Source of the DNA: a virus
Reading direction: 5' to 3' (one strand)
Virus record (IMG/VR): IMGVR_UViG_3300031787_000078
Span: 1,581 to 65,580 of that record
DNA length: 64,000 nt
Notes under the pieces: generated by a model
Seen by the model: the letters and a program-made list of their open reading frames with translations, nothing else
Database searches by the model: none
What the model was told of the DNA's origin: nothing
Shown: piece by piece, positions 2,065 to 51,023 of the stretch
Numbering within the stretch: the first letter of the stretch is position 1
How the letters are laid out: each line of letters opens with the position of its first letter
Translations under genes and position numbers: made by a program

Positions 2065-2379
2065 ATGGAAATTACAAGTGTAGAATTAAAAGAAAAAATT
2101 AACAATGGTGAAAAATTAATTGTTGAATTTTGGGCTGAATGGTGTGGACCATGTAGAATGATGAAACCAATATTTGAAAGAATATCAAATGAAAATACAT
2201 CTGATGTTAAGATGTATACAATGAATGTAGATTTAAATAGAGAAGTTGGAGCGTCATTAGGTATTAGAAGTATACCAACGATTAAAGTGATTAATTCTGG
2301 TGAAGTTATTGATACAAAAGTTGGGGTACTTAACGAAGGTCAATTAAAAGATATGTTAACCGAATTAATCAATGGATAA
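2065..2379 (+). CDS. trxA: thioredoxin
   Basis: WAEWCGPCRMMKP active-site motif (WCGPC); 104 aa, thioredoxin length. Confidence 0.9.
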   Translation: MEITSVELKEKINNGEKLIVEFWAEWCGPCRMMKPIFERISNENTSDVKMYTMNVDLNREVGASLGIRSIPTIKVINSGEVIDTKVGVLNEGQLKDMLTELING

Positions 2380-2656
2380 GGTTGCGGTTCTTTTTACGAT
2401 GAAACAATGCCCTTTTTGTCATATGTTAAAAGAAATGTTAGACAAAGAGGGTATTGAATACGTGGATCGTGATATTCACGAATATGAAGAAGAGTATAAC
2501 TTATTTGTTGAGGTAACAGAAAATGAATTTGTTCCGGCATTTATGTTAATTGAATCACCTGAAGATAATCCTGTGACTAAATTGTTTGCTCCTGACCGAG
2601 ATTTTGAAGATATTGAACAAGGCGCTAAAATAATTAAAGAATTTTTTAAAAGATAG
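2372..2656 (+). CDS. glutaredoxin/NrdH-like redoxin
   Basis: CPFC dithiol motif near the N-terminus (MKQCPFCHMLKEML); 94 aa; overlaps trxA by 8 nt. Confidence 0.6.
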   Translation: MDKVAVLFTMKQCPFCHMLKEMLDKEGIEYVDRDIHEYEEEYNLFVEVTENEFVPAFMLIESPEDNPVTKLFAPDRDFEDIEQGAKIIKEFFKR

Positions 2657-7138: not shown

Positions 7139-7291
7139 ATGGATAAAAATTTCGAAAAATTGATTGAAAAATTAATTAAGGACCTACCAAACGATATGGA
7201 TTTAGGTAAAGAAGTCAGAAAAGTTTATATTAAAATTATCGGTCAAAAAAATTCCCAAACCCTTAAATCTAATTCAAATGGGGTTCAATAA
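7139..7291 (+). CDS. small hypothetical protein (50 aa)
   Basis: Hand-translated MDKNFEKLIEKLIKDLPNDMDLGKEVRKVYIKIIGQKNSQTLKSNSNGVQ. Starts 2 nt after the upstream stop; overlaps the alternative ORF 7278-7460 by 14 nt. Confidence 0.25.
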   Translation: MDKNFEKLIEKLIKDLPNDMDLGKEVRKVYIKIIGQKNSQTLKSNSNGVQ

Positions 7292-7460
7292 GAGAATTTT
7301 CACAAAAAAACATATTTTAAGACATTTAGATGATATAGAAAAATATCTTGATGTCGATGCTGCATTTTTAACTGATAAATTCTCAAGAGATGTTTATCGG
7401 TTATTTAATGAAGGAAAATCCAAAGAAGAAATAATAAAATACATAAACGAAAACAAATGA
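7278..7460 (+). CDS. small hypothetical protein (60 aa)
   Basis: ATG ORF ending in an ATGA overlap with the glutamine synthetase start. Confidence 0.3.
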   Translation: MGFNKRIFTKKHILRHLDDIEKYLDVDAAFLTDKFSRDVYRLFNEGKSKEEIIKYINENK

Positions 7461-8581
7461 AAATTAAATTAGAATATGTTTGGCTTGATGGATATAGACC
7501 GGAGCCAAACCTTAGAAGTAAAGTTAAAATTGTTGAAAGTGAAGTTCCTATGGAATTAAATAATATTCCGGTATGGAATTTTGATGGATCATCCACTTCT
7601 CAAGCGGAAACAGGAAATTCAGATCGTCTTTTAAAACCTGTTAGACAGTATACAACACATGGGTTCCCATTCGTAAATGATACTGTATATGTATTATGTG
7701 AAGTATTAAATCCTGATGGGACCCCACATGAATCAAATAAAAGATCTCAGATTGGTGATAACTTTGAAGATCTTTGGTTTGGGTTTGAACAAGAATACTT
7801 CATACGTGAAGAGATTAACGGAAACATTTTAGGTCATAAAAGAAACATCCTTAAAGGACAGGGAGAATATTATTGTGGTGTAGGACATAATGTTGTTGGT
7901 CGTGATTTTGTTGAATCACACTTAGATATGTGTCTAAATTATGGGATTGATATTACCGGTACTAATGCTGAGGTTGCTTTAGGACAATGGGAATATCAAG
8001 TTTTTTCAAAAGGAAAATTAAAAGGTGGTGACGATCTTTGGATGACTCGTTATTTCTTATTCAAAATGGCAGAAAAATATGGTTATCATATTGAATTACA
8101 CCCTAAACCATTAACACACGGTGAGTGGAATGGATCTGGACTTCACACTAATTTCTCAACCGATACTATGAGAAATGATGGAAATGAAAAATATTTTATG
8201 GCTTTATTTAATGCATTTGAATCAAGACATCAAGATCACATCAAAGCGTATGGGTCTAATAATAATTTACGTCTAACTGGTGAATACGAAACACAGGCAA
8301 TTGATAAATTCAGTTGGGGTGTGTCAGATCGTGGAGCATCAATTCGTGTACCACAAGATACGGCAAAAGAATGGAAAGGCTACATTGAAGACCGTAGACC
8401 GGGATCAAATGCGGATCCATATAAAATTATTCGTGAGATTGTTAAATCTCTTGATGTTACAAAACAGATTTATGAAACAAAAATTATGATGACTAAATTT
8501 GTTGATATGGATGGATTAAGTGGTAAATACAATACTATATCAAGAGACGAATTATTAAACGTATATAGAGAAGAAGAATAA
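7457..8581 (+). CDS. glnII: glutamine synthetase, type II (eukaryote-like GSII)
   Basis: Colinear match to GSII signatures: WNFDGSST, LWFGFEQEY, YYCGVGHNVVGRD, GTNAEVALGQWEYQV, NGSGLHTNFST, GASIRVP, YIEDRRPGSNADPY. Confidence 0.92.
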   Translation: MKIKLEYVWLDGYRPEPNLRSKVKIVESEVPMELNNIPVWNFDGSSTSQAETGNSDRLLKPVRQYTTHGFPFVNDTVYVLCEVLNPDGTPHESNKRSQIGDNFEDLWFGFEQEYFIREEINGNILGHKRNILKGQGEYYCGVGHNVVGRDFVESHLDMCLNYGIDITGTNAEVALGQWEYQVFSKGKLKGGDDLWMTRYFLFKMAEKYGYHIELHPKPLTHGEWNGSGLHTNFSTDTMRNDGNEKYFMALFNAFESRHQDHIKAYGSNNNLRLTGEYETQAIDKFSWGVSDRGASIRVPQDTAKEWKGYIEDRRPGSNADPYKIIREIVKSLDVTKQIYETKIMMTKFVDMDGLSGKYNTISRDELLNVYREEE

Positions 8582-8865
8582 TGGATAATATAAAAGTATG
8601 TTTATGTGGGGGTACTGGCGATTGTAAGTGTCCCCCAATAAAAGTAGAACAAGTTAATCATCCACTACATTATGGTGGAGTAAATAATCCTTATGAAGCC
8701 ATCAAGGTTATTGACGCTTGGAATTTAGGATTTAGTTTGGGAAATACAGTAAAGTATATCTCAAGAGCGGGTAAAAAAGATTCGGACAAAGAGTTACAGG
8801 ATTTAAAAAAAGCATTATGGTATTTAGAACACCATATTGAAATGTTAGAAAAACAAAATGGATAA
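8581..8865 (+). CDS. DUF3310-family phage protein
   Basis: NHPLHY…IKVIDAW…GNTVKYISRAGKK…DLKKALWYLEHHI matches the recalled DUF3310 pattern (NHPxHY / GNxxKYxxR / DLxKAxWYL). Confidence 0.7.
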   Translation: MDNIKVCLCGGTGDCKCPPIKVEQVNHPLHYGGVNNPYEAIKVIDAWNLGFSLGNTVKYISRAGKKDSDKELQDLKKALWYLEHHIEMLEKQNG

Positions 8866-9178
8866 AAAAACTAAAAAAGGTTTAGAAAAAGAAATTGTTG
8901 TTTTAGATGCTATAACAAGTCCTGGTGAACTTATAAGAGAAACTGTTATTAATTTTGCTTGGGGATTGTTGGGTAATTCGGTAGTGGTTTTTGTATCTAA
9001 AGAAATGGATTTTATGGTTTTAATTAACTATATTTTATATTACATTTTAATCTCGTACATTGTGAATAGAAAAAAATATGAAACTATGTTAGGTAAATTT
9101 ATTGTACTTCCAGGATCTGCGGCTATTGGGGCTTACACAGGTTATAAGATTGCACAATTAATATCAAGTTCATTATGA
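8858..9178 (+). CDS. hypothetical membrane protein
   Basis: 106 aa with two hydrophobic helices. Confidence 0.4.
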   Translation: MDKKTKKGLEKEIVVLDAITSPGELIRETVINFAWGLLGNSVVVFVSKEMDFMVLINYILYYILISYIVNRKKYETMLGKFIVLPGSAAIGAYTGYKIAQLISSSL

Positions 9179-10119
9179 AAATAGTAGTAACAGGAGGGGC
9201 GGGTTTTATAGGTTCCGCATTTATAAATCACCTATTAGATAACTTTGATTGTGATGTTCTTTGTGTAGATAAATTGACTTATGCAGGTAAAAAAGAAAAT
9301 ATCAAACACAATGTTTCATTTCTACAAAAAGACATTTGTGATGTAACCGATAATGATCTTGGTGATTTTGATTATATAGTTCATTTTGCTGCCGAATCTC
9401 ACGTTGATAACTCAATTAAAAATGGTTTACCTTTTGTTAGAACTAATGTGGAGGGGACCTTTAATCTTTTAGAGATTTCAAGAAAAAATAAGAACTTGAA
9501 AAAATTTATTCATATCTCAACTGACGAGGTTTATGGTGATATGGATGATCATTTTGCGATAAATCATACTGCAACAGAGGATGATAATATTAAACCAAGT
9601 TCATATTATTCATCAACTAAGGCGGCTTCTGATATGTTAGTATTTTCGGCAAATAGAACATATGGTTTACCGTACTTAATTACAAGAACTTGTAATAATT
9701 TTGGAGAACATCAATTTGAGGAAAAATTTCTCCCAACGATTACACGATCAATTAATAAAGGTAAATCGATACCGGTTTATGGTGATGGAAAACAAATTAG
9801 AGAGTGGATGTATGTTTATGACAACGTTAAAGTCATATGTGATCTTATGTTTGACGATGAGGTCATAAACCAAGTTTTTAACATTGGAACTCGATTCAGA
9901 GTAACTAATTTAGATATTATAAATCAAATTGGAGTTATATTAAATAAAAAAGTTAAAATAAAACACGTTGAAGATAGATTGGGGCATGATAAAAAATATG
10001 GTCTTAATTCATCAAAAATGGAAAATTATTATAGACAAAAACACGGACAATTTCCTAATTTTTTAAATTTATTTGATTATCTAAAAAAAATGTATGGATA
10101 TGAAATGGGACAGAAATGA
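9175..10119 (+). CDS. NAD-dependent epimerase/dehydratase, dTDP-glucose 4,6-dehydratase (RmlB)-like
   Basis: N-terminal Rossmann motif VTGGAGFIGS, catalytic YxxxK (YYSSTKAASD), DKLTYAG segment typical of RmlB-type enzymes. Confidence 0.75.
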   Translation: MKIVVTGGAGFIGSAFINHLLDNFDCDVLCVDKLTYAGKKENIKHNVSFLQKDICDVTDNDLGDFDYIVHFAAESHVDNSIKNGLPFVRTNVEGTFNLLEISRKNKNLKKFIHISTDEVYGDMDDHFAINHTATEDDNIKPSSYYSSTKAASDMLVFSANRTYGLPYLITRTCNNFGEHQFEEKFLPTITRSINKGKSIPVYGDGKQIREWMYVYDNVKVICDLMFDDEVINQVFNIGTRFRVTNLDIINQIGVILNKKVKIKHVEDRLGHDKKYGLNSSKMENYYRQKHGQFPNFLNLFDYLKKMYGYEMGQK

Positions 10120-10252
10120 ATGGCAAGGAAGATCTAAAGAGCAGGTTGATCGTAATAATAAAGTATTTGGAATGGCTATGATAGGGATTTCAATTATTAC
10201 TACTGGACTTTTAATTATTTATTTACTATTATTATAAAAAAAACAAAAAAAA

Positions 10253-14629: not shown

Positions 14630-14712
14630 CCTTGTTTAGTAAAACAAGGTGGTGGAGTCGGACAATTCATTGTCGACCTTTAAAGGGAGGGGTTAACCTT
14701 CCCTTTTTTTAT
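14630..14712. terminator. convergent intergenic region with several hairpins (bidirectional termination)
   Basis: Perfect hairpin CCTTGTTT-AGTA-AAACAAGG (14630-14649), imperfect GTCGGACAA/TTGTCGAC hairpin, and AAGGGA…TCCCTT followed by TTTTTTT. Sits between the convergent + gene (ends 14625) and the minus-strand sigma gene (ends 14693). Confidence 0.5.
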
Positions 14713-15253
14713 TTAACTTTTCCAAATAAGATTTAACGTTGGCTTTTGCTTTAAATAAATTTGATTTTGATGTACCATCGCTAATTCCTAATTCATCTGC
14801 AATTTCTTGGTGAGACATATCTTCAAAATAATACATATTAAAAATTCTTTTATATGATGGTGATAAAGTTTCCATAGCATCTTTAATATCGGACATAGAA
14901 AACATAGGTTCTTCATTTGGCATATCCTCAAGACCTAAATCTTCACGACCGAAATCAACATCTTTTCTTTTTGGAGATCTTTTTTCTTTTCTTAATTCAT
15001 CAATAATTGTATTTTTTATAATACGTTGAATCCAACCTTCAAGGCTACCTGAACCGTCATACATTCCCATTTTTTGGTGAACCTTTATAAAACCTAATTG
15101 ACAAAAATCATTTGCTTTTTCTTTGTCTCCGTTTGCATATCTTAAACAAATCTGTCTAAATATTTTTGGGTATAACCTTTTATATTCAAGATCAAAATTA
15201 AATCCTTCACTTATTAAGTGTTCATATTGTGACTCAGTTAAAATGATTTTCAT
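14693..15253 (-). CDS. sigma-70 family (ECF-like) RNA polymerase sigma factor
   Basis: Region 2 segment (…FIKVHQKMGMYDGSGSLEGWIQRIIKNTIIDELR) and classic region-4 HTH (FEDMSHQEIADELGISDGTSKSNLFKAKANV). Start trimmed to the first ATG (MKIILTESQ…) at 15253; the track start 15355 is upstream in frame. Confidence 0.85.
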   Translation of the reverse strand: MKIILTESQYEHLISEGFNFDLEYKRLYPKIFRQICLRYANGDKEKANDFCQLGFIKVHQKMGMYDGSGSLEGWIQRIIKNTIIDELRKEKRSPKRKDVDFGREDLGLEDMPNEEPMFSMSDIKDAMETLSPSYKRIFNMYYFEDMSHQEIADELGISDGTSKSNLFKAKANVKSYLEKLNKKREG

Positions 15254-15704: not shown

Positions 15705-16613
15705 ATGAGTAGATTAGATAGATTAAAAGAACAACATCCTGAATTAAACATTACCATTATAGATCTTATTGGTATGATAGATCCTACCGATACGTATAAA
15801 TATTCTGAGTTTTTAATTAAAAAATTAAAAACGTGGTATGATAATATTGACATACGATATGGTATTGGGGTTGATTTTTTTGGTGAAGAAAATGTTGAAA
15901 CTTTAAATGAGTTTGAAATACATTGTAAGGCAAAAAGAATTGAGAAAAACGATATTAGTCAACATACCGACTTTAGGACTTTAAAAAATGAGGTTAATAA
16001 GGCTAAAGAAATTGTCAGATTAAAAGAGTTGGAAAAACAAACCAAAAAATTACTTGAATATGGGGAATGGTTAGTTATGATACCATTAAGTTATGAGGCG
16101 GCAAAGTTATATGGTGCAAATACTAAATGGTGTATAACTGAAGAAAAATATTGGAATAACTATGTTGAGAATTATAAAATTATTTATGTGATCAATAGAA
16201 GTACGGATGTTAAATATGCGATCTCTAGAGATAAAACGGATAATAAAGATTTAAAGGCGTGGTTGTCTGATGATAGTGAGACAAGTCCATTATTATTAAA
16301 TATACCTCAGGAAATATGGTCAGTGGTAATACCTGAATTACAAAAAGAAGAATCAATATGGGATTTACTACCGGATAATAATAAGATTATCCCACATAAT
16401 TTGGGTTCGGATAACATTCTTGATAGAGTGAGAAATTTATTAAACAGCAATAGTACGGGTCCACTAAATTTGACCGGAGGTTATATGGGTTACATAAATA
16501 CTGATTCCCATAATGATGTATATAGAACTTACAGTTCTCCCGATTATGTTGATTTTGAAAAGTATCTAAGAGAATATATGTATACGTCAGATGAATCAAT
16601 TGATTTACCTTAA
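15705..16613 (+). CDS. hypothetical protein, KYGAxTKWC family paralog A
   Basis: Shares PLSYEAAKLYGANTKWCITE…YVINR and an N-terminal DPTDTYKYSEFLIKKL block with the ORFs at 22205 and 30420. Confidence 0.5.
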   Translation: MSRLDRLKEQHPELNITIIDLIGMIDPTDTYKYSEFLIKKLKTWYDNIDIRYGIGVDFFGEENVETLNEFEIHCKAKRIEKNDISQHTDFRTLKNEVNKAKEIVRLKELEKQTKKLLEYGEWLVMIPLSYEAAKLYGANTKWCITEEKYWNNYVENYKIIYVINRSTDVKYAISRDKTDNKDLKAWLSDDSETSPLLLNIPQEIWSVVIPELQKEESIWDLLPDNNKIIPHNLGSDNILDRVRNLLNSNSTGPLNLTGGYMGYINTDSHNDVYRTYSSPDYVDFEKYLREYMYTSDESIDLP

Positions 16614-30023: not shown

Positions 30024-30433
30024 AAATAGGAATAACCTGTTCTTGTTTTGATTTATTTCATGCGGGACACGTAAAAATGTTGGAGGAAGCAAAAACACAG
30101 TGTGATTACTTAATAATAGCATTACAAACAGACCCAACAATTGATAGACCTGAAAAGAATAAACCGGTACAATCAGTTGTTGAAAGATACATCCAACTGA
30201 AAGGATGTAAGTTTGTTGATGAGATCATCCCTTATGAAACAGAAAAAGATTTAGAGGATATTTTTAAGACATTAAAATTAGATGTAAGGATTATAGGTGA
30301 GGATTATAAAGGAAAAGATTTCACCGCAAAACAAATATGTTTAGATAGGAGTATTGTGTTATACTATAATGAAAGAAAACACAATTTCTCAAGTACAGAA
30401 CTTAAAAAAAGAATAAATAATGGCAAAAATTGA
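30020..30433 (+). CDS. cytidylyl/adenylyltransferase (TagD / RfaE domain-II-like nucleotidyltransferase)
   Basis: CFDLFHAGH (HxGH) motif and overall fit to ~130-aa glycerol-3-phosphate cytidylyltransferase / heptose-1-phosphate adenylyltransferase domains. Confidence 0.8.
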   Translation: MKIGITCSCFDLFHAGHVKMLEEAKTQCDYLIIALQTDPTIDRPEKNKPVQSVVERYIQLKGCKFVDEIIPYETEKDLEDIFKTLKLDVRIIGEDYKGKDFTAKQICLDRSIVLYYNERKHNFSSTELKKRINNGKN

Positions 30434-31316
30434 TGAATTAAAAAAAAAATACCCAAAAGTTATTAAATCCGTTGCTGATAGATTTTTTGAAGGTGATAAA
30501 ACACCAACCAAAAAATATCTTGAGTTTATGTTCAAGATGTGGGCAACAAGAACTAATAGACCAACTGAGGCATTTTCTTCCGCTCAGTATGTTAAAGTAA
30601 TTAATCAGTTTGATCAGTTGTTACCATATATTGAAAATAAAGATATATATAGTGGTCAATATAAATCTATAGTGCAATTATTTAGAGTAGTTGATAATGC
30701 TAAAGTATTAAAAGAAGAAAATGAATTTATTCGTGAAGATCATGTTGATGTTTTAATTGATAATGAAGATTATCTTTTAATTAGTCCTTTAACTTTAAAG
30801 GGATCCATAAAATATGGTGCGAATACTAAATGGTGTACTGCCAGTAAATCAAGTTCTTATCACTTTACAAGTTACACTAGAGATGGTTATTTGTTTTATT
30901 TGATCTCAAAAAAAGAAAGAGGTAAAAATCATGATAAGGTTGCGTTTTATTCTCGTGGTGGTAAAAATGAACACTTGACCACGTCTTACGCAATTTATAA
31001 TCAAATTGATACTGAGATTAACGAGCAAAAATTTATTTTGAATGGTTGGACTATGTTTGATCTATTTGAAATAATGACTAAAATAAGAGTTTATGCATAT
31101 GAAAAGTATGTAATTGAAAAGGCTAAAACTGATGTTGAAAAAACTGTTAATATTCTGAAGTCAGTTAATTTAGATGAATTTTTACAACAAGTTAATTTGT
31201 TAGAAAAATACGGAGAAAGTGGGGAAATAGAAGGAAGAGATGAATTGGAAAAAGTAATTCAAACTTTAAGTAAAAAAACAGAAGATTTATTTGGTAAATC
31301 TAAAATTAATGTGTAA
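30420..31316 (+). CDS. hypothetical protein, KYGAxTKWC family paralog C
   Basis: PLTLKGSIKYGANTKWCTASKSS…YLISK and an N-terminal DKTPTKKYLEFMFKMW block. Confidence 0.5.
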   Translation: MAKIDELKKKYPKVIKSVADRFFEGDKTPTKKYLEFMFKMWATRTNRPTEAFSSAQYVKVINQFDQLLPYIENKDIYSGQYKSIVQLFRVVDNAKVLKEENEFIREDHVDVLIDNEDYLLISPLTLKGSIKYGANTKWCTASKSSSYHFTSYTRDGYLFYLISKKERGKNHDKVAFYSRGGKNEHLTTSYAIYNQIDTEINEQKFILNGWTMFDLFEIMTKIRVYAYEKYVIEKAKTDVEKTVNILKSVNLDEFLQQVNLLEKYGESGEIEGRDELEKVIQTLSKKTEDLFGKSKINV

Positions 31317-37901: not shown

Positions 37902-38124
37902 ATTATATGATCAGTTGGAAGAATTCCAAAACGTCAGATACCGAATGGGTGCTGAAGGATTTCATTATTGTTTTAAAAGTTACTCAAGTTTTGAAGAAAT
38001 TGAGGATGATAAATTTCACGATTTAAGAAATGAATATCTTAGAGTAAGTAAAGAGTTAGAGAACTATGTTATAAATAAAATTTCTGAAATAGAAACTGAA
38101 ATTGCAATTAATGAATATGAATAG
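37882..38124 (+). CDS. hypothetical protein
   Basis: 80-aa ORF. Confidence 0.35.
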   Translation: MEEKLNKLYDQLEEFQNVRYRMGAEGFHYCFKSYSSFEEIEDDKFHDLRNEYLRVSKELENYVINKISEIETEIAINEYE

Positions 38125-39202
38125 TTTAGACAAACAATACCAAGATTTACTCCAATCAATTTTAGATTACGGAGTTGAAAAACAAGACCGTACAGGTACA
38201 GGAACCAAATCAATCTTTGGTTATACAATCCGTCATAATATGAAAGATGGGTTTCCTGTATTAACAACCAAGAAAATGGCGTGGAAGACGATGGTAACCG
38301 AATTGTTATGGTTCCTTCGTGGTGATACAAACATCAAGTTCCTTATTGATAATAATTGTCATATTTGGGATGGTGATGCGTACAAGAATTACTGTACCGC
38401 TTATAAAGATGGTCATGAATTTTATGAGGATGAACAAGTAAAGCGTTCTTTTACTCAAGAAGAATTCATCGACAAAATCAAAACAGATGATGAGTTTGCT
38501 AAGAAATGGGGTGACTTAGGTCCTGTATATGGTAAGCAATGGAGAAGTTGGGAAAATTTTTTCTATGATAACCCAGACCCATATGGTGATGGTTTTAGTC
38601 ACTATAAAGTAGACCAAATTCAAAATTTAATCAACGACCTTAAAACAAATCCTGACTCAAGACGACTAATGGTTAATGCTTGGAATGTAGGTGAATTAGA
38701 CCGAATGGTTCTTCCACCTTGTCATTATGGGTTCCAAGTTTATACAAGAGAATTGAGTTTGGAAGAAAGAAATGAAATTAGAGATATGCAATATTTTAGA
38801 AATAACTTACATAAATCCTTAAAAGGAAGTGATACTAAAATTGATTGGGAAAATATCCCAACTAGAGCAATCTCTTTAATGTGGAATCAACGTTCGGTAG
38901 ACACATTCTTAGGTTTACCGTTCAATATAGCATCTTACGGACTTCTACTTACAATCTTAGCAAAAGAAGTTAACATGGTTCCTGACCAACTGATTGGTAA
39001 TTTAGGTGATACCCACCTTTATCTTAATCATATTGAACAGGCAAAAGAACAGATTACAAGAGAACCATTTGAGTTACCAACACTTAATCAATTCCCAACT
39101 TACGAAGGGTCAAGACCATCAATAGAATCTTATGTGGTTAGTGATTTTACACTTAAAGATTATAAATCACACGAATCAATTAAAGCCCCTTTATCAAATT
39201 AA
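38117..39202 (+). CDS. thyA: thymidylate synthase (ThyA) with internal insertions
   Basis: DRTGTGTKSIFG, LLWFLRGDTN, PPCHYGFQVY (catalytic Cys), NQRSVD, DTHLYLNH. Track start 38102 is TTG; ATG (MNSLDKQY…) at 38117. Confidence 0.93.
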   Translation: MNSLDKQYQDLLQSILDYGVEKQDRTGTGTKSIFGYTIRHNMKDGFPVLTTKKMAWKTMVTELLWFLRGDTNIKFLIDNNCHIWDGDAYKNYCTAYKDGHEFYEDEQVKRSFTQEEFIDKIKTDDEFAKKWGDLGPVYGKQWRSWENFFYDNPDPYGDGFSHYKVDQIQNLINDLKTNPDSRRLMVNAWNVGELDRMVLPPCHYGFQVYTRELSLEERNEIRDMQYFRNNLHKSLKGSDTKIDWENIPTRAISLMWNQRSVDTFLGLPFNIASYGLLLTILAKEVNMVPDQLIGNLGDTHLYLNHIEQAKEQITREPFELPTLNQFPTYEGSRPSIESYVVSDFTLKDYKSHESIKAPLSN

Positions 39203-39444: not shown

Positions 39445-40167
39445 ATGAATTACGGAAAAGAATTTAGAAAATTCGCAAAGAGCGAAGGAATTAACTCACT
39501 GGTATTGGATCAGTTTGAGAATGGGTTAACACCATACATTTTGGAAGAACGAGAAATGAGAGCAACGCAAATGGATATTTTCTCCAGATTGATGCGTGAT
39601 CGTATCTTATGGGTGTCAGGACCTGTTAATCAATATATGTCTGATATTGTTCAGGCTCAATTATTGTTTCTTGATTCTGTTGAGAAAAAAGATATTACAT
39701 TATATATTAATTCACCTGGTGGGTCTGTATTATGTGGATTAGGGATTGTTGATCTTATGAACTTTGTAAATTCAGATGTTGCCACAACAAACATTGGGAT
39801 GTGTGCATCAATGGGGTCGGTATTGTTATCTGCGGGGGCAAAAGGAAAACGATCATCTTTAATCTATTCAAAAGTAATGACACACCAAGTAAGTCACGGA
39901 ACACAAGGTAATGTTCAGGACACACGTATTAACCAAATGGAGGCGGAGAAGTACAATTACGTTTTATTCAAAATGATTGCTGAGAATTGTGGTAGATCAT
40001 TTGATGAGGTGTTGGAGTTTTCAAGGAGAGATCGTTGGTATACTTCTGACGAAGCATTAGAATTTGGTTTGGTTGATGAAGTTATTGGTGTGGATAAGAA
40101 TAAATCCATTACACAAATGTTGGAAGGGTTTGATGATTATTATCAAAAAGAAGTAATGTCTAAATAA
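39445..40167 (+). CDS. clpP: ATP-dependent Clp protease proteolytic subunit ClpP
   Basis: INSPGGSV, catalytic Ser in GMCASMGSVLLSAG, His in MTHQVSHG, downstream Asp; colinear with ClpP. Confidence 0.9.
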   Translation: MNYGKEFRKFAKSEGINSLVLDQFENGLTPYILEEREMRATQMDIFSRLMRDRILWVSGPVNQYMSDIVQAQLLFLDSVEKKDITLYINSPGGSVLCGLGIVDLMNFVNSDVATTNIGMCASMGSVLLSAGAKGKRSSLIYSKVMTHQVSHGTQGNVQDTRINQMEAEKYNYVLFKMIAENCGRSFDEVLEFSRRDRWYTSDEALEFGLVDEVIGVDKNKSITQMLEGFDDYYQKEVMSK

Positions 40168-40804: not shown

Positions 40805-42712
40805 ATGTCTAAATTACTAAGAGTAATATTTACTTTATTTTTATTGACTCCGTTGTTTGTGTTTTCACAAGTACCTCAGGCACCTTCTAATGGTATCTGG
40901 GGTATAATTGATACACAATATCAAGTCGGTACAACTGCTCAGGGATCGACCCAAGCAAAAATCACTTTACAAAACACAACATTAACTAAGTACGCAGGTA
41001 CTCAGTTTAGAGTGTTTTATGACAACACAGCGTTCACAAACGCAACCGTATCATTGATTGGATCAACTACAAACCTCGATCTTCAATATACAACAAATAC
41101 CGCAAACGGATATATCACTATGACCTTAGTTTATACAGGTCCAAGTGCTACTTATACGTTGGCTAATGGTGAGAGATTTTTAATTACATTCACTCATGCG
41201 GCTCCTGCGGTGTTTAATAACTTGGCATCAATTTCACCACTTACTTGGTCAGGTGCTCAGGTGTTCCCAACATACGCAGCTAAACAAGATGGGATGGACA
41301 CAACATTAAGTGTACATAATTATGGAGGTAACTTCACATTTCAAAACTTCCAATATGCTGGAACATTTACAAACGTAACAGGGTCACCGGCTAAGTATTT
41401 AAATTTGGCACTTCAAAGAAGACCACAGACAGGAGGTTCGTGGGCACAACACTCCACTTATTCAACAGATATAAATGGTAACTTTTCAATATCGGTTCCA
41501 TTAGATACTACGTATTGGGATGTTCGTTTGGCAATCCAAGGAGATACAATGGGTGTTGGTAATATTATTTCATCAACAGATGCCCAACAAGTTAATCAAT
41601 GGGTATTAGGTAATGGTACAATGACAGGATTTGACTACTACACTGCAGATGTAAATAATTCGGGTAATATTACAATTTCAGATGTATGGGGTGTATTCGG
41701 TAGAGTATCTGGTAGATTCACACAATGGCCAAATAACGTTAAAGATGTAAAATTCTTTACCGCATCTGAATACTCAACAATCAACGGATCCAACACAAAC
41801 TACACTCAAACTATTCCTGGTGTAACAAACTTTACATTTGAAATTATTGCGGGTCAACCATCTTCAGTAACATATTATGTTATGGTTCCTGGTGATGCTA
41901 ATGGTACAGGATATCATATGGCACGTGTTACTCCAATTGAAGTATTAGTAGGACCAATACCTGGTTTAGAATCACAAATTTATAATGTAATAGATACTAA
42001 AGTTGAATATGATTTCCCAACTCAAACAATTGAAGTTAATGTACCACATATTTCAGTTGATGCTGGTAATTTAGTTAACCTTCCCGTGAAAGTATTTACA
42101 AATGGTATAGAATTATCTTCGTTACAGTTTGGTTTAAAATACAATACAGACCTATTGGAATTCAAAGGAGTTATTGCAAGTGAAAATGCGATGAAGTGGA
42201 TGTCTTATGTTAACCCAAATGGTAATCAAATTGATTGGGGTGGATTTGATGTAACAAATAATCAACAAACGCTTAAGGATGGTGATGAAGTTGTAACATT
42301 ACAATTCATAGCAAAACAACCACAAAACTTATGGGAAGAAAGTCCTTTATATACTTCATTAAAATTTGCGGGAACCACAGAATCTAATGACTTAACAATT
42401 ACCCCAACTAACGGAATCTTACAAGTATTAAAAAGTAATATTGGTGAAGTAATTGGAAATAGTATAGAAGTGTTTCCTAATCCATTTGTTGAAAATGTAA
42501 CAATAACATTTGAAGTAAAAGAAACGACAAACGCAAATCTTTCGGTTTATGATGTTGTAGGTAGAAAAGTTGTTACTATCCTTGAAGGTCAATTACCTGA
42601 TGGAACATATAATTACAATGAAAACTTAGGACAATTAGAACCAGGACTTTACATAGTAACCTTAAATATGGACAATGAAAGTCCAAAGTTTGAGAAAATT
42701 GTAAAACAATAA
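40805..42712 (+). CDS. secreted protein with T9SS (Por) C-terminal sorting domain and EF-hand/dockerin-like Ca loop
   Basis: Signal peptide MSKLLRVIFTLFLLTPLFVFSQ. C-terminal VFPNPFVENVTITFEV…LSVYDVVGRKVV…GLYIVTLNM matches the Por_Secre_tail pattern. Internal DVNNSGNITISD loop. Confidence 0.8.
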   Translation: MSKLLRVIFTLFLLTPLFVFSQVPQAPSNGIWGIIDTQYQVGTTAQGSTQAKITLQNTTLTKYAGTQFRVFYDNTAFTNATVSLIGSTTNLDLQYTTNTANGYITMTLVYTGPSATYTLANGERFLITFTHAAPAVFNNLASISPLTWSGAQVFPTYAAKQDGMDTTLSVHNYGGNFTFQNFQYAGTFTNVTGSPAKYLNLALQRRPQTGGSWAQHSTYSTDINGNFSISVPLDTTYWDVRLAIQGDTMGVGNIISSTDAQQVNQWVLGNGTMTGFDYYTADVNNSGNITISDVWGVFGRVSGRFTQWPNNVKDVKFFTASEYSTINGSNTNYTQTIPGVTNFTFEIIAGQPSSVTYYVMVPGDANGTGYHMARVTPIEVLVGPIPGLESQIYNVIDTKVEYDFPTQTIEVNVPHISVDAGNLVNLPVKVFTNGIELSSLQFGLKYNTDLLEFKGVIASENAMKWMSYVNPNGNQIDWGGFDVTNNQQTLKDGDEVVTLQFIAKQPQNLWEESPLYTSLKFAGTTESNDLTITPTNGILQVLKSNIGEVIGNSIEVFPNPFVENVTITFEVKETTNANLSVYDVVGRKVVTILEGQLPDGTYNYNENLGQLEPGLYIVTLNMDNESPKFEKIVKQ

Positions 42713-42733
42713 ACAATATAAATAAATAACAAA

Positions 42734-43078
42734 ATGTCAGAAGAACAAACACAAGAAACGAACGACGGAACTTGGTCAGGATTGAAAAAAACAATCATTG
42801 GAACATTAACAACGGTAATTGCTGGTGGCGGAGTATGGGTAAGTACATTGATATTCGGTGGTGGTGATGAACCTACTGAAGAAACAAAAACTGAACAAGC
42901 GGCACCTGCATCACAACCTGTGATTAATCTTAATGTACAACAAAACCAAGAAAATAAACAAAAAACTGAGAACAATAACGGTGGTGGTGTAGTTCGTGAA
43001 AGAATTATTGAAAGACCTGCACAACAACCACAACCACAACCTGAAAAACCAAAAAAGGTTGAGGAAGAATCTTGGTAA
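42734..43078 (+). CDS. hypothetical membrane-anchored low-complexity protein
   Basis: One TM helix (IIGTLTTVIAGGGVWVSTLIF) then a Q/P/E/K-rich tail; preferred over the overlapping minus-strand ORFs because of strand bias and packing. Confidence 0.45.
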   Translation: MSEEQTQETNDGTWSGLKKTIIGTLTTVIAGGGVWVSTLIFGGGDEPTEETKTEQAAPASQPVINLNVQQNQENKQKTENNNGGGVVRERIIERPAQQPQPQPEKPKKVEEESW

Positions 43079-43103
43079 TAAACAATTAAAATAAAACAAA
43101 ACA

Positions 43104-43484
43104 ATGTCATTTTTAAAAAACCTTTTTAGTGGTGGATCGCAAGAATTCACAAAAGTTGAGAACGATCAAAGATTTAACTTTATGTTACAACAAATGCAAG
43201 GAAACAGATGGAAGATTACTCTTATCATTCTATTAACTTTCTTCTTTATAATTTTCGGTATTGTATTATCGGTAATGTTTAAAGCTGAAATTCAAGAATC
43301 TTGGAAAGAGTTACTTTTATTATTGTTAGGTGCATTCGTTGGTAACTTAAATAAAGTTATTGACTTTTGGTTCTCTAATGAAGATAGAGATAAAATGTTA
43401 GTTCAAAAAATGGATGAGGAAGATAACGTCTCAAAACCGGATTTAGAATCATACGAAGAACCAACTGAAGAAATAGAAGGATAA
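43104..43484 (+). CDS. hypothetical membrane protein
   Basis: 126 aa, two TM helices. Confidence 0.45.
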   Translation: MSFLKNLFSGGSQEFTKVENDQRFNFMLQQMQGNRWKITLIILLTFFFIIFGIVLSVMFKAEIQESWKELLLLLLGAFVGNLNKVIDFWFSNEDRDKMLVQKMDEEDNVSKPDLESYEEPTEEIEG

Positions 43485-44224
43485 TGAAAAAAATATTTTA
43501 CATATTACCTTTTTTTTTAATAGGTTGTAAAACTTTACAGGCCCAGCCCCCTCAAAATGGAGGGGGTATTGGTTCTGTAAAAACTGAACAGTATCAAGCA
43601 GAATTTGAAAAAAAACAATCAATTACAGAAGTTGCGGAATATACTGATACAATACAAGTTCCAATACAATTATTAAAAATTGGTATTAACGAAGAATTAT
43701 ATGAATTGTATCCTGAACTTAAAGACAAACGTGTAGGTTTAGGTGTTACAAACATTGTAATTGAATATTTGGAGTATACGGGTAGATTTGTTTTTACCGA
43801 AGAAAAGGAAGACATCAAACAACGAATGATTGCTCAGGATAAAGCATCTGACAAAGGGATCTCGGTTAATAAAATTGATGTAAAAGGAAATGTAATCTTA
43901 GCAAAATACTTTGTTTATGTTGAGGTATATGACTTTAGTGTATCGGAAGATGAGGTGGTTAAAGTTAACGGTCAACAAACAACAACACAGACCACAAGAT
44001 TAGGATTACAAATTAAATTCGTAGATGCTGAAACAAGTCAAGTGATCGTAGGATCTGGATTGGGTGAGGCAAGTACGGTAAAAACCTCAAATTTATTAGG
44101 GGACATTTCTGATGATGTTAAATTTAACCAATCAACAATTGGTATAACAACAAAGAAGGCGTTGGAAACGGCATCTTCAAGGGTAGTGACACGACTTATT
44201 TCAAAAGGTGTCTTTAAAAATTGA
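43484..44224 (+). CDS. putative lipoprotein
   Basis: MKKIFYILPFFLIGC signal/lipobox. Confidence 0.5.
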   Translation: MKKIFYILPFFLIGCKTLQAQPPQNGGGIGSVKTEQYQAEFEKKQSITEVAEYTDTIQVPIQLLKIGINEELYELYPELKDKRVGLGVTNIVIEYLEYTGRFVFTEEKEDIKQRMIAQDKASDKGISVNKIDVKGNVILAKYFVYVEVYDFSVSEDEVVKVNGQQTTTQTTRLGLQIKFVDAETSQVIVGSGLGEASTVKTSNLLGDISDDVKFNQSTIGITTKKALETASSRVVTRLISKGVFKN

Positions 44225-45852
44225 AATTAAATGTATTCATACTATTGTTCTTTTGCGTGTTTAGGTTCTTAAACCTAAATGCGCAAACTTACAATTATAG
44301 TTATTCCGATCCATGTACAGGCAATTTAAAAACAATAATAGTACCTATTAACGGAAGCGTAACAGTTTCATATTATGGATCAATCGCATCGTTTACTCAA
44401 AACGATTTCACAAACGGAACATTTGATGCTTGGACTAGTAACATATTTTCACAATATGGAACAAATAGTCCTTGTTCGGAAATAGTGGGGTTGGGTACGG
44501 CAGTTAACGTAACCCAAAATACTGCATTAAATGTTATTGGAATTCTTAACTCACTCTCAACAATATCTGATTTGGCAGCAGGATCTACTAATATATTAGG
44601 TGGATCTGTTACGTCTATTAATAATGCTGGAGGAAATAATAATTCTAAAAATAACAAAGGAGGGAATAATTCCCAAAATGGAAGTGGAGGTAATACAACA
44701 AATACTAATAACACCACAACCAATAATAATCAAAATCAAACAAATGGGACAAGTAACACTAATGAAGGAAGTACAACCAATTCTGGAACAAATGAAACAA
44801 GTTCAAACGGAGGAAATGGAGCCCCTAATTCAAATGTTGGAAATGAAAATTCAACACAAGCAGGAGGAACTACAACTCAAGGTGGATCAAATGAAAATGG
44901 AAATACATCGTCTAGCACGACTGTAAATGGGGAAACTCCCAACAACCAAACTCAAACAACAGGAGGGGAAACATCTGAAACACCAATAAACAATGAAACA
45001 ACAACTGAAAATGGAAATAATATCGGCAACACTGGCAGTGGTAATAACGGGAACACTGGTAATAATGGGAATGGTGGGTCTGGTTCAGGAAATAATCAGA
45101 CGGAAGAAAATAATGCAACACCTGAAACAACAGAAGAAAAAGGACAGACAAATATAACAGGAGGTGCCACAACCACAGTTAGATCAACACCAACAAGTAA
45201 AGAAGGTGGAAAACCCACTGTAGTGGGAAGTGCGGATTTTATTGGTTTTAATTTTAAAAATTCTGAAGTTAAAACAGGATTGAAGTTAACTGGTGGGTAT
45301 ACCGCAATGAGATGGGACGGTAAAAGAAGTTCAGGGTGTTTAGTTGATTATACTTCAGCACTTAGAGGACCAAACATTACAGGTTTTTATGCGTTCATTA
45401 GACCTAAATCTATTGTATTAGGGTCAGGAACATTAACGGTTGGATTTGAAGGTAACAAATCATTATATGGTACGATTGCTTTAGGACAAATGTTTACATT
45501 TAAAAAACCTAAATCCCTTAAACTTCTTTACATGGCGACTGTATCTTATGGTCAGGTCTATAGAGAATCGTTTTTAGGTACTGCCGCTATTGTGGGGGGG
45601 ACATATGATTTTAGTATTGGTAAACGATTTGATGTAAAATTAATGAACTTATTTGTTTACGCTCCTTATGTTAGTTATTATAATGATGTGGTATTGAAGT
45701 CACCTTATGTGATGTTACCAAGTATTGGTACAAATATAAAATTAACGAAAAAGTTTAAATTTAACATAAATGCAGGTGGTGCTTGGGATTTAAAAACAAG
45801 TGCTTTAAATTATACAGTAACGTGTGGAACAAGATTATTAATTGGACAATAG
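44221..45852 (+). CDS. secreted protein with N/T/G-rich low-complexity region and C-terminal beta-rich (possibly outer-membrane barrel) domain
   Basis: TTG start gives signal peptide MKLNVFILLFFCVFRFLNLNAQ; aa ~130-320 are N/T/G/S low complexity; the C-terminal ~250 aa show alternating hydrophobic beta-strand-like patterning. Confidence 0.45.
   Translation: MKLNVFILLFFCVFRFLNLNAQTYNYSYSDPCTGNLKTIIVPINGSVTVSYYGSIASFTQNDFTNGTFDAWTSNIFSQYGTNSPCSEIVGLGTAVNVTQNTALNVIGILNSLSTISDLAAGSTNILGGSVTSINNAGGNNNSKNNKGGNNSQNGSGGNTTNTNNTTTNNNQNQTNGTSNTNEGSTTNSGTNETSSNGGNGAPNSNVGNENSTQAGGTTTQGGSNENGNTSSSTTVNGETPNNQTQTTGGETSETPINNETTTENGNNIGNTGSGNNGNTGNNGNGGSGSGNNQTEENNATPETTEEKGQTNITGGATTTVRSTPTSKEGGKPTVVGSADFIGFNFKNSEVKTGLKLTGGYTAMRWDGKRSSGCLVDYTSALRGPNITGFYAFIRPKSIVLGSGTLTVGFEGNKSLYGTIALGQMFTFKKPKSLKLLYMATVSYGQVYRESFLGTAAIVGGTYDFSIGKRFDVKLMNLFVYAPYVSYYNDVVLKSPYVMLPSIGTNIKLTKKFKFNINAGGAWDLKTSALNYTVTCGTRLLIGQ
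44611..45181 (+). repeat. low-complexity (Asn/Thr/Gly/Ser-rich) coding region
   Basis: GGNNNSKNNKGGNNSQNGSGGNTTNTNNTTTNNNQNQTNGTSNTNEGSTTNSGTNETSSNGG…. Confidence 0.5.
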
Positions 45853-45860
45853 TATTATTG

Positions 45861-47513
45861 ATGTTATTTTTTGTGTCCTTCTTTGGATTGGGCCAAACAT
45901 TTACCTATTCTGGTTACATTTATAATGCTGATGGGACAGGTGCGGTAAATGTACCTGTTAAGTTGTATAAAAGAACTACACCCGTGATGAATGGGTTTAC
46001 GTCACAAACTAATTATAACGGACATTCATATTATCGATCAACAGGGGTTGCGACTTGGACGACAGCAAAAAGTGCGTGTGAGGCAATGAATGGTCATTTA
46101 GCCACAATATCGAATGCCTCAGAAAATACATTTCTTTTTAATACGTGGCCTTCAGGTTGGATTGGGTATTATCAAGACCGTGTAGCAGGATATACCTATT
46201 CAGAACCAACGGGTGGATATAGATGGACAGAAACTCAAGTTACAAGTGGTTTAGATGCTGACTATGATGTATCATCTTATACATCAGGACCAACTTTAGT
46301 TGATATCAAATCATCAATTAATGCCACACTATATAATTCTCCGACCTATTCAAGTACGGGAGGTAAATACTTAACATTCAATGGTTCTAATCAATATGCG
46401 ATAACTAATAACTTAGCTTCAAAATTCACATCAACCGCAATATCAGTAGTTGCTTGGATTTATCCAACAGGAAATGGGGTGATTGCATCTGAATTAAATA
46501 TCCCAAGCACAACATCAGGTTGGCACGAATCAATTATAGAAATTACAGGGTCAAATACCTTAAGAGTTGGGTTTTGGAACGGTACGGGTATTACGCAATT
46601 AAACACTCCTATTACACTTAATACATGGAATATGGTTTGTATCACTTATGATGGAACCACAATGAGAGGTTATTTAAATAATGTGAGTTTTGGAAGTGTA
46701 AACTTTTCTCGACAAGCGGCATTTATACATGGAGGAAATGGTCAACAACATTTCGCATTTGGATTAAATGATGCAACCAATATGGGTTCAGGTGCATTTG
46801 GGTCGTTTAGATTAGGTGACATCCAATTTTTTGACCGAGCAATTACCGTAGATGAAATTGATAGAACATTTAATTTATATGCTTATAGATATAGAACAAA
46901 TCAATATACTAACTGGAATCCTGGTGAACCAAATGATTCGGGTGGTGAGGATTATACACAATTTGTGGGTGGTGGTAAATGGAATGACTTACCCGTAAAT
47001 TATAGTTTCCAATACGTAATTGAGTTTGATTATATTGTTGATTATACACCATGGGTTTTATTTCAAACGGTATACACTAACTCATCAGGATACTATAGTT
47101 TTTCACAACCAACGAATCCTGCAGTAGAATGGTACTTACAATACGATGCACCAACACCAGTTACGACTTTACAAATAACAGACATGGTTGAAGTGTCTAA
47201 ATTGGTTTTAGGTATTACACCAATTAAAAGTATTCATTATCACAGATATGATGTTAACTATGATGGTAAAATAAATGTTGCTGATGAAAACTACATAAAC
47301 TTAAGAAGATATAATTTTTTTAATAGTTGGGTAACGATGTCACCTGCTAGATTATTTACACCGGCACAATACACAACATTAACAACAAATACAACAGATT
47401 TAAGAGTAACTATTCCTGGTGTATCATCTATAACAATAAACTCACCTGTAAGTGGAGGTTCGCAAAACTACTACTTAATAGCTCCGGGTTATAAAACAAC
47501 TGTAAACTATTAA
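45861..47513 (+). CDS. secreted C-type lectin-like protein with nested LamG (concanavalin-like) insertion and EF-hand/dockerin-like loop
   Basis: CTLD N-half WTTAKSACEAMNGHLATISNASENTFLFNTW…WIGY and C-half NWNPGEPND…EDY…KWND with EPN/WND Ca-sugar motifs and only one Cys; about 250 aa between the halves looks LamG-like (VVAWIYP…WHE…VCITYDGTTMRGYLNNV); DVNYDGKINVAD loop. Start uncertain: track TTG 45783, GTG 45822 or ATG 45861. Confidence 0.55.
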   Translation: MLFFVSFFGLGQTFTYSGYIYNADGTGAVNVPVKLYKRTTPVMNGFTSQTNYNGHSYYRSTGVATWTTAKSACEAMNGHLATISNASENTFLFNTWPSGWIGYYQDRVAGYTYSEPTGGYRWTETQVTSGLDADYDVSSYTSGPTLVDIKSSINATLYNSPTYSSTGGKYLTFNGSNQYAITNNLASKFTSTAISVVAWIYPTGNGVIASELNIPSTTSGWHESIIEITGSNTLRVGFWNGTGITQLNTPITLNTWNMVCITYDGTTMRGYLNNVSFGSVNFSRQAAFIHGGNGQQHFAFGLNDATNMGSGAFGSFRLGDIQFFDRAITVDEIDRTFNLYAYRYRTNQYTNWNPGEPNDSGGEDYTQFVGGGKWNDLPVNYSFQYVIEFDYIVDYTPWVLFQTVYTNSSGYYSFSQPTNPAVEWYLQYDAPTPVTTLQITDMVEVSKLVLGITPIKSIHYHRYDVNYDGKINVADENYINLRRYNFFNSWVTMSPARLFTPAQYTTLTTNTTDLRVTIPGVSSITINSPVSGGSQNYYLIAPGYKTTVNY

Positions 47514-49818: not shown

Positions 49819-50526
49819 ATGAAAATTACTATAATATCAGATACTCACAATCATCACAATAGAATTACTGATGACTTACCTGGTGGTGATCTACTTATTC
49901 ACGCTGGTGACCTTAGTTCTATGGGTTATCAACATGAGATTGAAAATTTTGCAAAATGGTTTGATGGTTTAAATAACTATGATCATAAAGTTTTTATTAG
50001 TGGTAACCACGACTGGGGATTTCAAAATAACAGTGAGAAAATTAAAGGTCTTTTAACGGGTTATAAAACAATTGATTATCTTGAAGATGATTGGATTACC
50101 GTTGGAGATGATGATCCACATAATGTAAATGTAAAAACTGCTAAAATTTGGGGTAGTCCTTGGCAACCTGAGTTTTATAATTGGGCATTCAATTTACCCC
50201 GAAATGGTGATGAGTTGAAATCAAAATGGGATATGATTCCTGAGGACATTGACATTTTAATTACTCATGGACCGGCTTGGGGTTTTCTTGATGATGTTGA
50301 AGGTAGAAGAGGGGAACATCTTGGGTGTGAATTACTTATAGAAAAAATAAGACAGATTAAACCAAAAATTCATATATGTGGACACATTCATACAGGATAT
50401 GGTCATTTCTACAATGGGCAAACTCACTTCTTCAACGCTTCGGTTCTTAATGAAAGATATGCTTACGCTCATTTACCTTGGAATATAGATTGGAATCCGA
50501 TAACAAATGAAATTGAATTTTTATGA
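49819..50526 (+). CDS. calcineurin-like metallophosphoesterase
   Basis: ISDTHNHH, HAGDL, ISGNHD, ITHGP, CGHIHTGYGH. Confidence 0.8.
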   Translation: MKITIISDTHNHHNRITDDLPGGDLLIHAGDLSSMGYQHEIENFAKWFDGLNNYDHKVFISGNHDWGFQNNSEKIKGLLTGYKTIDYLEDDWITVGDDDPHNVNVKTAKIWGSPWQPEFYNWAFNLPRNGDELKSKWDMIPEDIDILITHGPAWGFLDDVEGRRGEHLGCELLIEKIRQIKPKIHICGHIHTGYGHFYNGQTHFFNASVLNERYAYAHLPWNIDWNPITNEIEFL

Positions 50527-51023
50527 TGGAAAAGGCAAAATTTATTGAGAATAAAATTTTTAAAGATAAACGAGGTACGTTTAGTCCTTTAGATCTGGCT
50601 AAACTTGATAAAAATTGGGTTCAAAGTAATATTAGTACAAATCCCCAAAAATTTACACTCAGAGGATTACATTTCCAAAAGAATGAATACGCTCAGGCCA
50701 AGTTAATTAAAGTCATCTCAGGTAAGATATTGGACTTTGTTGTTGATCTTAGAACAGTATCTGAAGATTATGAAAAAGTATTTTTCTTTGAGATGAATGA
50801 AGGGGATGAGGTTTATGTCCCAAGATATTTTGCTCACGGATTTATCACACTTCAAAAAGATACTGTGGTTCAATATTTAGTTGATAACGATTACAGTCCT
50901 GAGAATGAAGGTGTGGCAGTGTGGACCAAATATCCTGAAATTGAGAGAGAAATAAAGAAGTTAGATTTAACGTTTGATAGTAATTTGATTATTATTGAAA
51001 ACAAAGATTTGGTGGAAAAATAA
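50523..51023 (+). CDS. dTDP-4-dehydrorhamnose 3,5-epimerase (RmlC)-like cupin
   Basis: FKDKRGTF, RGLHFQ, KLIKVISGKILDFVVDLR, YVPRYFAHGFITL match the RmlC pattern. Confidence 0.6.
   Translation: MMEKAKFIENKIFKDKRGTFSPLDLAKLDKNWVQSNISTNPQKFTLRGLHFQKNEYAQAKLIKVISGKILDFVVDLRTVSEDYEKVFFFEMNEGDEVYVPRYFAHGFITLQKDTVVQYLVDNDYSPENEGVAVWTKYPEIEREIKKLDLTFDSNLIIIENKDLVEK

Follow-up and report, generated by a model that had tools for sequence, protein, structure and literature searches.

A type II glutamine synthetase gene under purifying selection in a large, probably Bacteroidota-infecting freshwater phage

Glutamine donates amide nitrogen to the synthesis of purines, pyrimidines, amino sugars and NAD. 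Type II glutamine synthetase (GSII), one form of the enzyme that makes glutamine, is a decamer in which two pentameric rings are stacked and the active sites lie between adjacent subunits. Genes for glutamine synthetase (GS) are also carried by phages. A 2025 preprint (10.1101/2025.02.27.640493) reports 248 of them in 247 huge phages and proposes the same nitrogen-supply role that is considered below, while PMC12619734 (2025, Archives of Virology) describes 25 "moraphages" of 200-307 kb, mainly from freshwater and with predicted Bacteroidota (Flavobacteriia) hosts, which have DnaK and DnaJ and of which 9 encode GS as an auxiliary metabolic gene. A jumbo phage survey also lists glnA (PMC13037316). 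Here we analyse a GSII gene in a 64,000-nucleotide stretch of viral DNA, positions 1,581 to 65,580 of the IMG/VR record IMGVR_UViG_3300031787_000078; this whole stretch is called the window, and all positions refer to it unless another locus is named. We think it likely that the gene encodes a working GSII of a large freshwater Bacteroidota phage and would add glutamine synthesis during infection.

The presence of GS in huge phages is thus already published, and the window gene is an auxiliary metabolic gene of a known kind. Like the window gene, the published huge- and jumbo-phage GS are phage-encoded, are read as nitrogen-related auxiliary metabolic genes and come mostly from freshwater and marine sources. 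In the parts available, these papers give the presence of the gene and a speculated role, and neither the GS type, an active-site check, a C-terminal tail nor an insertion slot is treated there. The window and its relatives resemble moraphages in their freshwater origin, in a predicted Bacteroidota host, in carrying DnaK and DnaJ, and in that only some of them have GS; the contigs considered here measure 250-317 kb. From these shared features only, the window may belong to the moraphage lineage; none of the markers used to place moraphages (TerL, MCP and PolB) lies in it. The initial annotation had called viral nitrogen-assimilation enzymes rare, a view that is outdated for GS given the 248 genes in huge phages, the 9 of 25 moraphages and at least 593 IMG/VR viral contigs that carry relatives of the window gene. 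What is added here is incremental: a type II assignment with bacterial affinity, an intact active site with strong selection, a clade-specific tail, and a gain/loss slot.

Sequence comparison identifies the product of the 7457-8581 open reading frame (ORF) unambiguously, and far beyond chance, as a type II GS. All four motifs quoted in the initial annotation for this assignment (WNFDGSST, GTNAEVALGQWEYQV, NGSGLHTNFST and YIEDRRPGSNADPY) are found in the 374-residue translation, and ORF, translation, Pfam, NCBIfam and PDB agree in bearing it out. Both Pfam domains score over their gathering thresholds (Gln-synt_N, 35.5 bits; Gln-synt_C, 66.9 bits), and their order, a beta-grasp domain followed by the catalytic domain in a single chain of 374 residues, is the GSII architecture, for which lengths range from about 330 to 380 residues. 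The NCBIfam model for GlnII, NF041605, matches residues 1-331 with 331 bits (331.3; E = 6e-99), against 65 bits for the GlnA type I model and 36.5 bits for the type III model on the same protein. In a comparison with every PDB chain, yeast Gln1 (3fky, 2.9e-86) and Streptomyces coelicolor GlnII (4bax, 2.4e-84) rank highest, followed by insect, plant and mammalian GSII down to human GS (1.7e-74), spanning residues 2-331; type I structures match at 1e-11 only. An AlphaFold2 monomer model, built on a family alignment of 36 sequences (79-93% identity), was of low confidence (mean pLDDT, the predicted local distance difference test score, 43.9); the fold is already settled because of the matches to solved GSII. 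As a GSII, the phage protein would be expected to assemble in the manner of its class.

The active site was compared with that of human GS, using a reference sequence identical to PDB 8dnu_A over 373/373 residues. A MAFFT alignment served to check 26 substrate-binding positions drawn from PMC6601560, in which residues of mammalian GS that bind substrate were mutated to alanine, and PMC9713474, a cryo-EM paper that names the Mn2+ ligands and substrate arginines. The window protein has the human residue at 24 of these positions, and at all 26 its residue is unchanged in 120 of 120 relatives (the closest database clusters). From the alignment, the predicted metal ligands are E111, E113, E172, E179, H230 and E311, and the predicted substrate arginines R272, R292, R297, R313 and R314, with E278 as the flap residue; the ammonium-site residues D43 and S46 are kept, as are Y139, N225 and G226. 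The two positions unlike human GS are S184 (human P208) and W306 (human K333). In mammalian GS, the P208A mutant retained activity and K333A retained 5-15% (PMC6601560). Position 333 varies among active GSII, since yeast Gln1 carries a glycine there (PDB alignment). W306, a lysine in mammalian GS, is invariant across 120 family members and also occurs in the GS of the phage record LR756501. At a further position, T167 (human A191) is the hamster residue. Every substrate and metal residue at which mammalian GS is sensitive to mutation is kept, both in the window protein and in the 120 relatives. Inactivating substitutions in the catalytic residues, which the initial annotation had named as grounds for doubt, are therefore not found, and nothing in the aligned positions points to inactivation; the enzyme is probably functional and catalytically competent.

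Selection on the gene was measured by the Nei-Gojobori method as the ratio of nonsynonymous to synonymous changes (dN/dS), comparing the window gene with 54 distinct homologous coding sequences from 80 IMG/VR loci. For the core of the protein, residues 1-331, the median dN/dS is 0.07 (dN 0.09, dS 1.26, with synonymous sites near saturation), and the five closest pairs give 0.04. The gene is under strong purifying selection, and hundreds of contigs preserve its reading frame. One deviating copy was seen in locus L191 (IMG/VR 3300008267_010598), where about 29 codons, equivalent to window 7536-7688, are deleted in frame and the part of the N-domain that follows FDGS is lost, the S46 position with it; this copy represents an inactive allele or else an artefact of assembly.

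In composition the gene resembles its surroundings: its GC content is 33.5%, with 19.5% at third codon positions, like the neighbouring genes and the window (30.7% GC), and its codon usage lies inside the window's range. An identical GS protein is found in 43 index blocks of public assemblies, and at least 23 contigs from different samples, such as JGI 3300008107 Ga0114340_1000439, carry the identical protein with the same neighbours. A survey of 185,579 bacterial and archaeal species (one genome each) returned 599 GS relatives, the best of them only 58% identical. Because the same neighbourhood recurs on at least 23 independent contigs, the gene is neither the product of misassembly nor a host fragment of recent date; the initial annotation had named both as possible refutations.

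To place the gene among GSII, we built a neighbour-joining tree from Kimura distances over 297 well-aligned columns of 230 sequences, with 100 bootstraps. The set held the window GS with 14 family members, three huge-phage GS, human GS, 79 named sequences from bacteria and archaea, and representatives of 50%-identity clusters found by searching 1.84 billion proteins. The window family, the sequence P0122 and a clade of about 401-residue proteins that are 57% identical to the window GS (P0121, P0125, P0271) are monophyletic in 100/100 bootstraps. SAR86-type GlnII fall beside this phage clade in just 34/100, which leaves the cellular sister without support. The nearest named cellular proteins are bacterial GlnII, with full-length identities of 49-58% and values of up to 62% when only the conserved columns are counted; many of them belong to Bacteroidota (Saprospiraceae, Roseivirgaceae, Flavobacteriales). 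Human GS reaches 46% on the conserved columns. The N-terminus is likewise of bacterial length, window residue 2 aligning to residue 3 of 4bax and to residue 25 of human GS. The label "eukaryote-type" used in the initial annotation thus holds as the traditional name of the class and fails as a statement of affinity.

Compared with bacterial GlnII (NF041605; 4bax), the window protein is alike in its two-domain build, N-terminal start and catalytic residues, with the 49-58% identity extending to Bacteroidota, Planctomycetota, Proteobacteria and others; it is unlike them in its model score, in a tail of about 43 extra residues, in being encoded by a phage and in forming its own clade. Eukaryotic GSII, such as yeast Gln1 (3fky), human GLUL (8dnu/2qc8) and maize GS1a (2d3a), belong to the same fold family. 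The window protein is about 46% identical to the human enzyme, lacks some 20 residues that eukaryotic GSII have at the N-terminus, and has a longer, different C-terminal tail.

Other very large phages also encode GSII. The proteins of four "uncultured phage" records of 635-735 kb (LR756501, LR756502, LR756503, LR745206) are 45-55% identical to the window GS and lack the tail of its clade (331 residues in LR756501/LR756503, 365 in LR756502 and 358 in LR745206). Their genes were located at 7995-8990 of L008 (LR756501), 2992-4089 of L009 (LR756502) and 2998-4074 of L010 (LR745206). In the tree, the LR756501 protein lies among Bacteroidota GlnII, with up to 69% identity, and those of LR756502 and LR745206 pair elsewhere in 91/100 bootstraps; in 0/100 replicates does either group join the window clade directly. 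These GS look like lineages separate from the window clade, possibly separate acquisitions, and the tree suggests that huge phages may have acquired GS more than once, its deep nodes being too weak for proof. The LR745206 protein also reads TSRIP where a relative has TSIRIP, a one-residue deletion beside a substrate arginine.

The tail is specific to the phage clade of the window protein. Alignments to cellular and solved GSII (NCBIfam, PDB) stop near residue 331, and the window GS runs 43 residues further. This extension is conserved throughout the GS family and in the 57%-identical clade, and some members of the phage clade bear a further variable extension, for a total of 398-427 residues. 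Its dN/dS of 0.19-0.26 over the last 43 residues indicates purifying selection. The tail matches no Pfam family, and a hidden Markov model (HMM) of it, run against all ORFs of 93 phage loci, found nothing but GS at E < 0.4; it is therefore no tag shared with other proteins in the sampled loci.

Presence of the gene is polymorphic among related phages. Upstream of GS lies a conserved ORF of 60 codons, and downstream a gene with a DUF3310 domain; the three overlap at their ends (Table 1) and are probably co-transcribed and translationally coupled. A promoter and terminator scan around GS gave no more sites than shuffled sequence, with a tool that does not cover Bacteroidota-type promoters. The small ORF belongs to a family of 59-66 residues with the pattern MGFNKR...D.FSR.VY...EEII..IN, further members of which lie at 9722-9922 in L001 and 5804-6004 in L221 (L numbers designate the loci compared here); the overlap with GS is usually an ATGA. 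It was used as a query against IMG/VR, and the 47 evaluable loci were read by eye, WVDG variants and the L191 copy being included. In 40 of them GS lies downstream of the small ORF, directly adjacent in 39 and separated by 0.7 kb in L173; in the other 7 the small ORF occurs without GS. Compared with the window, L175 and L177 are syntenic (71-77% nucleotide identity) up to 7458 and again from 8637, inside DUF3310, so that only GS is gone from the slot. In L218 and L220 another gene of about 1 kb, a 281-residue ORF, occupies it. This variable presence fits the occurrence of GS in only 9 of the 25 published relatives.

The 57%-identical clade keeps the same gene order, with a 66-residue MGFNKR ORF, GS, DUF3310 and, further along, HSP70, although the small ORFs of the window and of this clade align only over their N-terminal 13 residues (E = 8e-4). 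Because that clade has the same slot between MGFNKR ORF and DUF3310, the residence of GS would be long; judged by gene order, GS is an old resident of the phage lineage, yet one in a defined single-gene gain/loss slot. In L001 the pair of small ORF and GS stands in a rearranged context, preceded by a UvrC-like gene and followed by ThyA. The small ORF matched neither a Pfam nor a PADLOC family, and no defence-system family was found by PADLOC in GS and five neighbour proteins. A role of the small ORF as a dedicated partner of GS was considered and is weakened, since relatives without GS keep it.

Two further indels touch this region. Besides the missing GS, L175 and L177 show a second gap, at 8852-10234, which loses a 106-residue ORF and an RmlB-like NAD-dependent dehydratase (9175-10119) and is a second indel cassette beside the GS slot. 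Between small ORF and GS, an insert of about 670 nt with a 203-residue ORF is present at 729-1424 of L173 and 802-1413 of L095 (IMG/VR 3300042557_000524), in a close relative with 94% nucleotide identity upstream and 89% over GS and downstream. By eye, the insert ORF, which starts MVGYVYVIINT..KKYIGV, looks like a candidate GIY-YIG homing endonuclease.

The wider context is phage-like. At about 30% GC, the window consists of tightly packed, often overlapping ORFs, nearly all on the plus strand and most of them without a Pfam family. The flanks of GS hold DUF932, DUF3310, ORFs of phrog families, a PHA02142-type RNA ligase and an N6/N4 DNA methylase, with no capsid, portal or terminase gene in the window; NUDIX, 2OG-Fe(II) oxygenase, glycosyl- and methyltransferase genes and an endolysin-like phrog are also recognizable. 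A tRNA scan found no tRNA genes in the 64 kb. Positions 1-25000 had no megablast match among 50,697 phage records, and there is therefore no close sequenced relative in that collection. Table 1 lists the features with assigned positions; those of thioredoxin, glutaredoxin and the sigma factor derive from precomputed Pfam hits on an identical contig, locus L004, which is offset by 2544 nt from the window.

Table 1. Positions of the GS gene, its parts and other assigned genes (window coordinates unless a locus is named).
Feature	Position	Strand	Evidence or remark
Glutamine synthetase type II (GlnII-like) gene	7457..8581	+	ATG-started ORF, 374 aa; Pfam, NCBIfam and PDB matches
N-terminal beta-grasp domain, residues 5-86, with predicted ammonium-site D43 and S46 (human D63 and S66)	7469..7714	+	Pfam PF03951, residue mapping
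Catalytic domain, about residues 100-331	7754..8449	+	Alignment to human GS; PF00120
Clade-specific C-terminal extension, residues 332-374	8450..8578	+	Motif MM..V...L..KY.T...ELL.EY.EE
Conserved 60-aa ORF (MGFNKR...)	7278..7460	+	Stop overlaps GS start (ATGA)
DUF3310 gene, 94 aa	8581..8865	+	PF11753, E = 1.6e-13; ATG overlaps GS stop (TAATG); downstream border of GS slot
Thioredoxin gene	~2065-2379	+	Pfam
Glutaredoxin gene	~2372-2656	+	Pfam
ECF (extracytoplasmic function)-type sigma factor gene	L004 17237-17797, ~window 14693-15253	minus	
DnaK/HSP70 gene	23858..25714	+	Pfam HSP70, E = 3e-259
ClpP gene	39445-40167		
Secreted 635-aa protein with C-terminal type IX secretion sorting domain and Cohesin	40805..42712	+	Por_Secre_tail, E = 3.8e-11
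DnaJ gene	L007 1-183, just upstream of window region		

The set of DnaK, DnaJ and ClpP matches published large freshwater Bacteroidota phages. Phage-encoded proteins sorted by the type IX secretion system (T9SS) are unusual, and the Por_Secre_tail sorting domain in a window protein suggests a Bacteroidota host. GS relatives are carried by the at least 593 IMG/VR contigs mentioned above; the best 80 have identities of 81-94% throughout, their contigs reaching 290 kb, and GS clusters of the protein database with 78-93% identity come from contigs up to 317 kb. The genome is probably that of a large freshwater phage, of some 200-300 kb, most likely infecting Bacteroidota. With this gene content, the variable presence of GS and the IMG/VR relatives, the reading of GS in the initial annotation as an auxiliary metabolic gene in a virus-like setting is plausible. 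The thioredoxin and glutaredoxin genes that it cited alongside are real, but a functional link to GS does not follow; the distance is 5 kb, and two genes on the minus strand intervene.

Several other observations concern the genome at large. The secreted protein opens a run of large secreted-looking ORFs with hydrophobic N-termini (40805-47513), one more of which carries Laminin_G_3. Three paralogues of about 300-344 residues (15705-16613, 22205-23239 and 30420-31316) match phrog_17056 and phrog_28193, both of unknown function, so that the phrog_17056 family is expanded inside this phage. A ThyA homologue of 366 residues (38102-39202) covers the full 266-position Pfam profile, so that some 100 additional residues fall within the domain; two relatives, L001 and L002, have the ThyA gene just downstream of GS. 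A phage-encoded pathway of sugar modification is suggested by the RmlB-like gene in combination with others found elsewhere in the window, namely several for glycosyl- and methyltransferases, one that is cytidylyltransferase-like and one for an RmlC-like dTDP-sugar isomerase (50523-51023).

How else might the gene be explained? It could be cellular, that is, a host fragment, a chimera, or part of a bacterial contig mistaken for a virus: no virion hallmark gene was found in the window, and some relatives are binned in metagenome-assembled genomes labelled Bacteroidetes (P0111). Against this stand a gene order that recurs on at least 23 independent contigs, a composition equal to the window's, a best match of 58% identity among species genomes, a phage-like gene content in which most ORFs lack a family, hundreds of IMG/VR contigs of up to 290 kb, and published phage lineages with the same feature set, all of which make a cellular source very unlikely. 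A source among eukaryotes or their giant viruses would agree with GSII being the eukaryotic type and with yeast Gln1 as the nominal top PDB match. We rejected it, and give it almost no credence, because bacterial GlnII are more similar to the window protein (49-58%) than human GS is (about 46%), the N-terminus has the bacterial length, and the window encodes DUF3310, a bacterial sigma factor and a sorting domain of the T9SS. Nor is it credible, to any greater degree, that the gene is a decaying passenger without function. Related phages without GS and the deletion in the L191 copy are what such decay might leave behind, but the selection analysis largely refutes it, with core dN/dS values of 0.04-0.07, 26 positions invariant in 120/120 relatives and a frame intact across hundreds of contigs.

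The main alternative keeps fold and chemistry and changes the use. The phage clade may form a functionally distinct subfamily in which the tail, perhaps with the MGFNKR protein, confers other regulation, another partner or another substrate: the enzyme could be insensitive to host nitrogen control and so uncoupled from it, could dock a host or phage factor, or could act as an amidoligase on substrates other than glutamate and ammonia. If so, the phage would rewire nitrogen assimilation in its Bacteroidota hosts, beyond adding GS activity. Such repurposing would account for a tail that is conserved clade-wide, the 57%-identical members included, that is under purifying selection and that is absent from cellular GlnII and the other huge-phage GS, as well as for a score under the equivalog cut-off, for the invariant W306 in place of the mammalian lysine, and for a small ORF that adjoins GS in most loci and stays with it in a rearranged context. 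The glutamate, ammonium, ATP and metal residues are all kept, however, which favours the usual GS reaction; the small ORF does not depend on GS, being retained in relatives that lack it; the tail HMM finds no other protein in the 93 phage loci; and neither tail nor small ORF has a Pfam or PADLOC match. We regard repurposing as unlikely on this balance.

A working GSII that supplies glutamine to the infected cell therefore remains the explanation we hold to be likely, and several points weigh against it. The score of 331.3 bits lies below the curated equivalog cut-off of NF041605 (500), so that the protein is, on its profile matches, a divergent GSII whose type and superfamily are clear and whose match stops short of the narrow GlnII equivalog. 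Characterized GSII have no counterpart of the 43-residue tail, which could alter regulation, assembly or function. Because syntenic relatives lack or replace the gene, it is a dispensable accessory. Two PHROGs scans of 20 larger window ORFs gave no hit to a capsid, portal, terminase or tail family, and the viral assignment, though strong, is indirect, being drawn from gene content, IMG/VR membership and published relatives. Finally, no glutamine-consuming amidotransferase was seen in the window, and local linkage gives no support to the proposed use of glutamine.

If the working-enzyme explanation is correct, GS would be made from the phage genome within the coupled string of 60-residue ORF, GS and DUF3310, and would turn ATP, glutamate and NH4+ into glutamine, ADP and Pi in the infected cell. 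The phage would thereby hold a GS capacity independent of the host enzyme and its regulation, one that could persist when host expression is shut down or host GS is down-regulated. The glutamine formed might then sustain the amide nitrogen needed for the nucleotides, amino sugars and protein of a very large phage in nitrogen-poor water.

In this light, a GS of its own could benefit a phage that has to build a genome of 200-300 kb in nitrogen-poor lake water. The tail may be a minor variant of the enzyme, and the findings added here as a whole leave the overall picture unchanged. The slot supplies natural pairs of phages with and without GS for ecological comparison. Because the gene is abundant, on hundreds of viral contigs, and strongly conserved, it is probably of ecological relevance to nitrogen flow in freshwater Bacteroidota.

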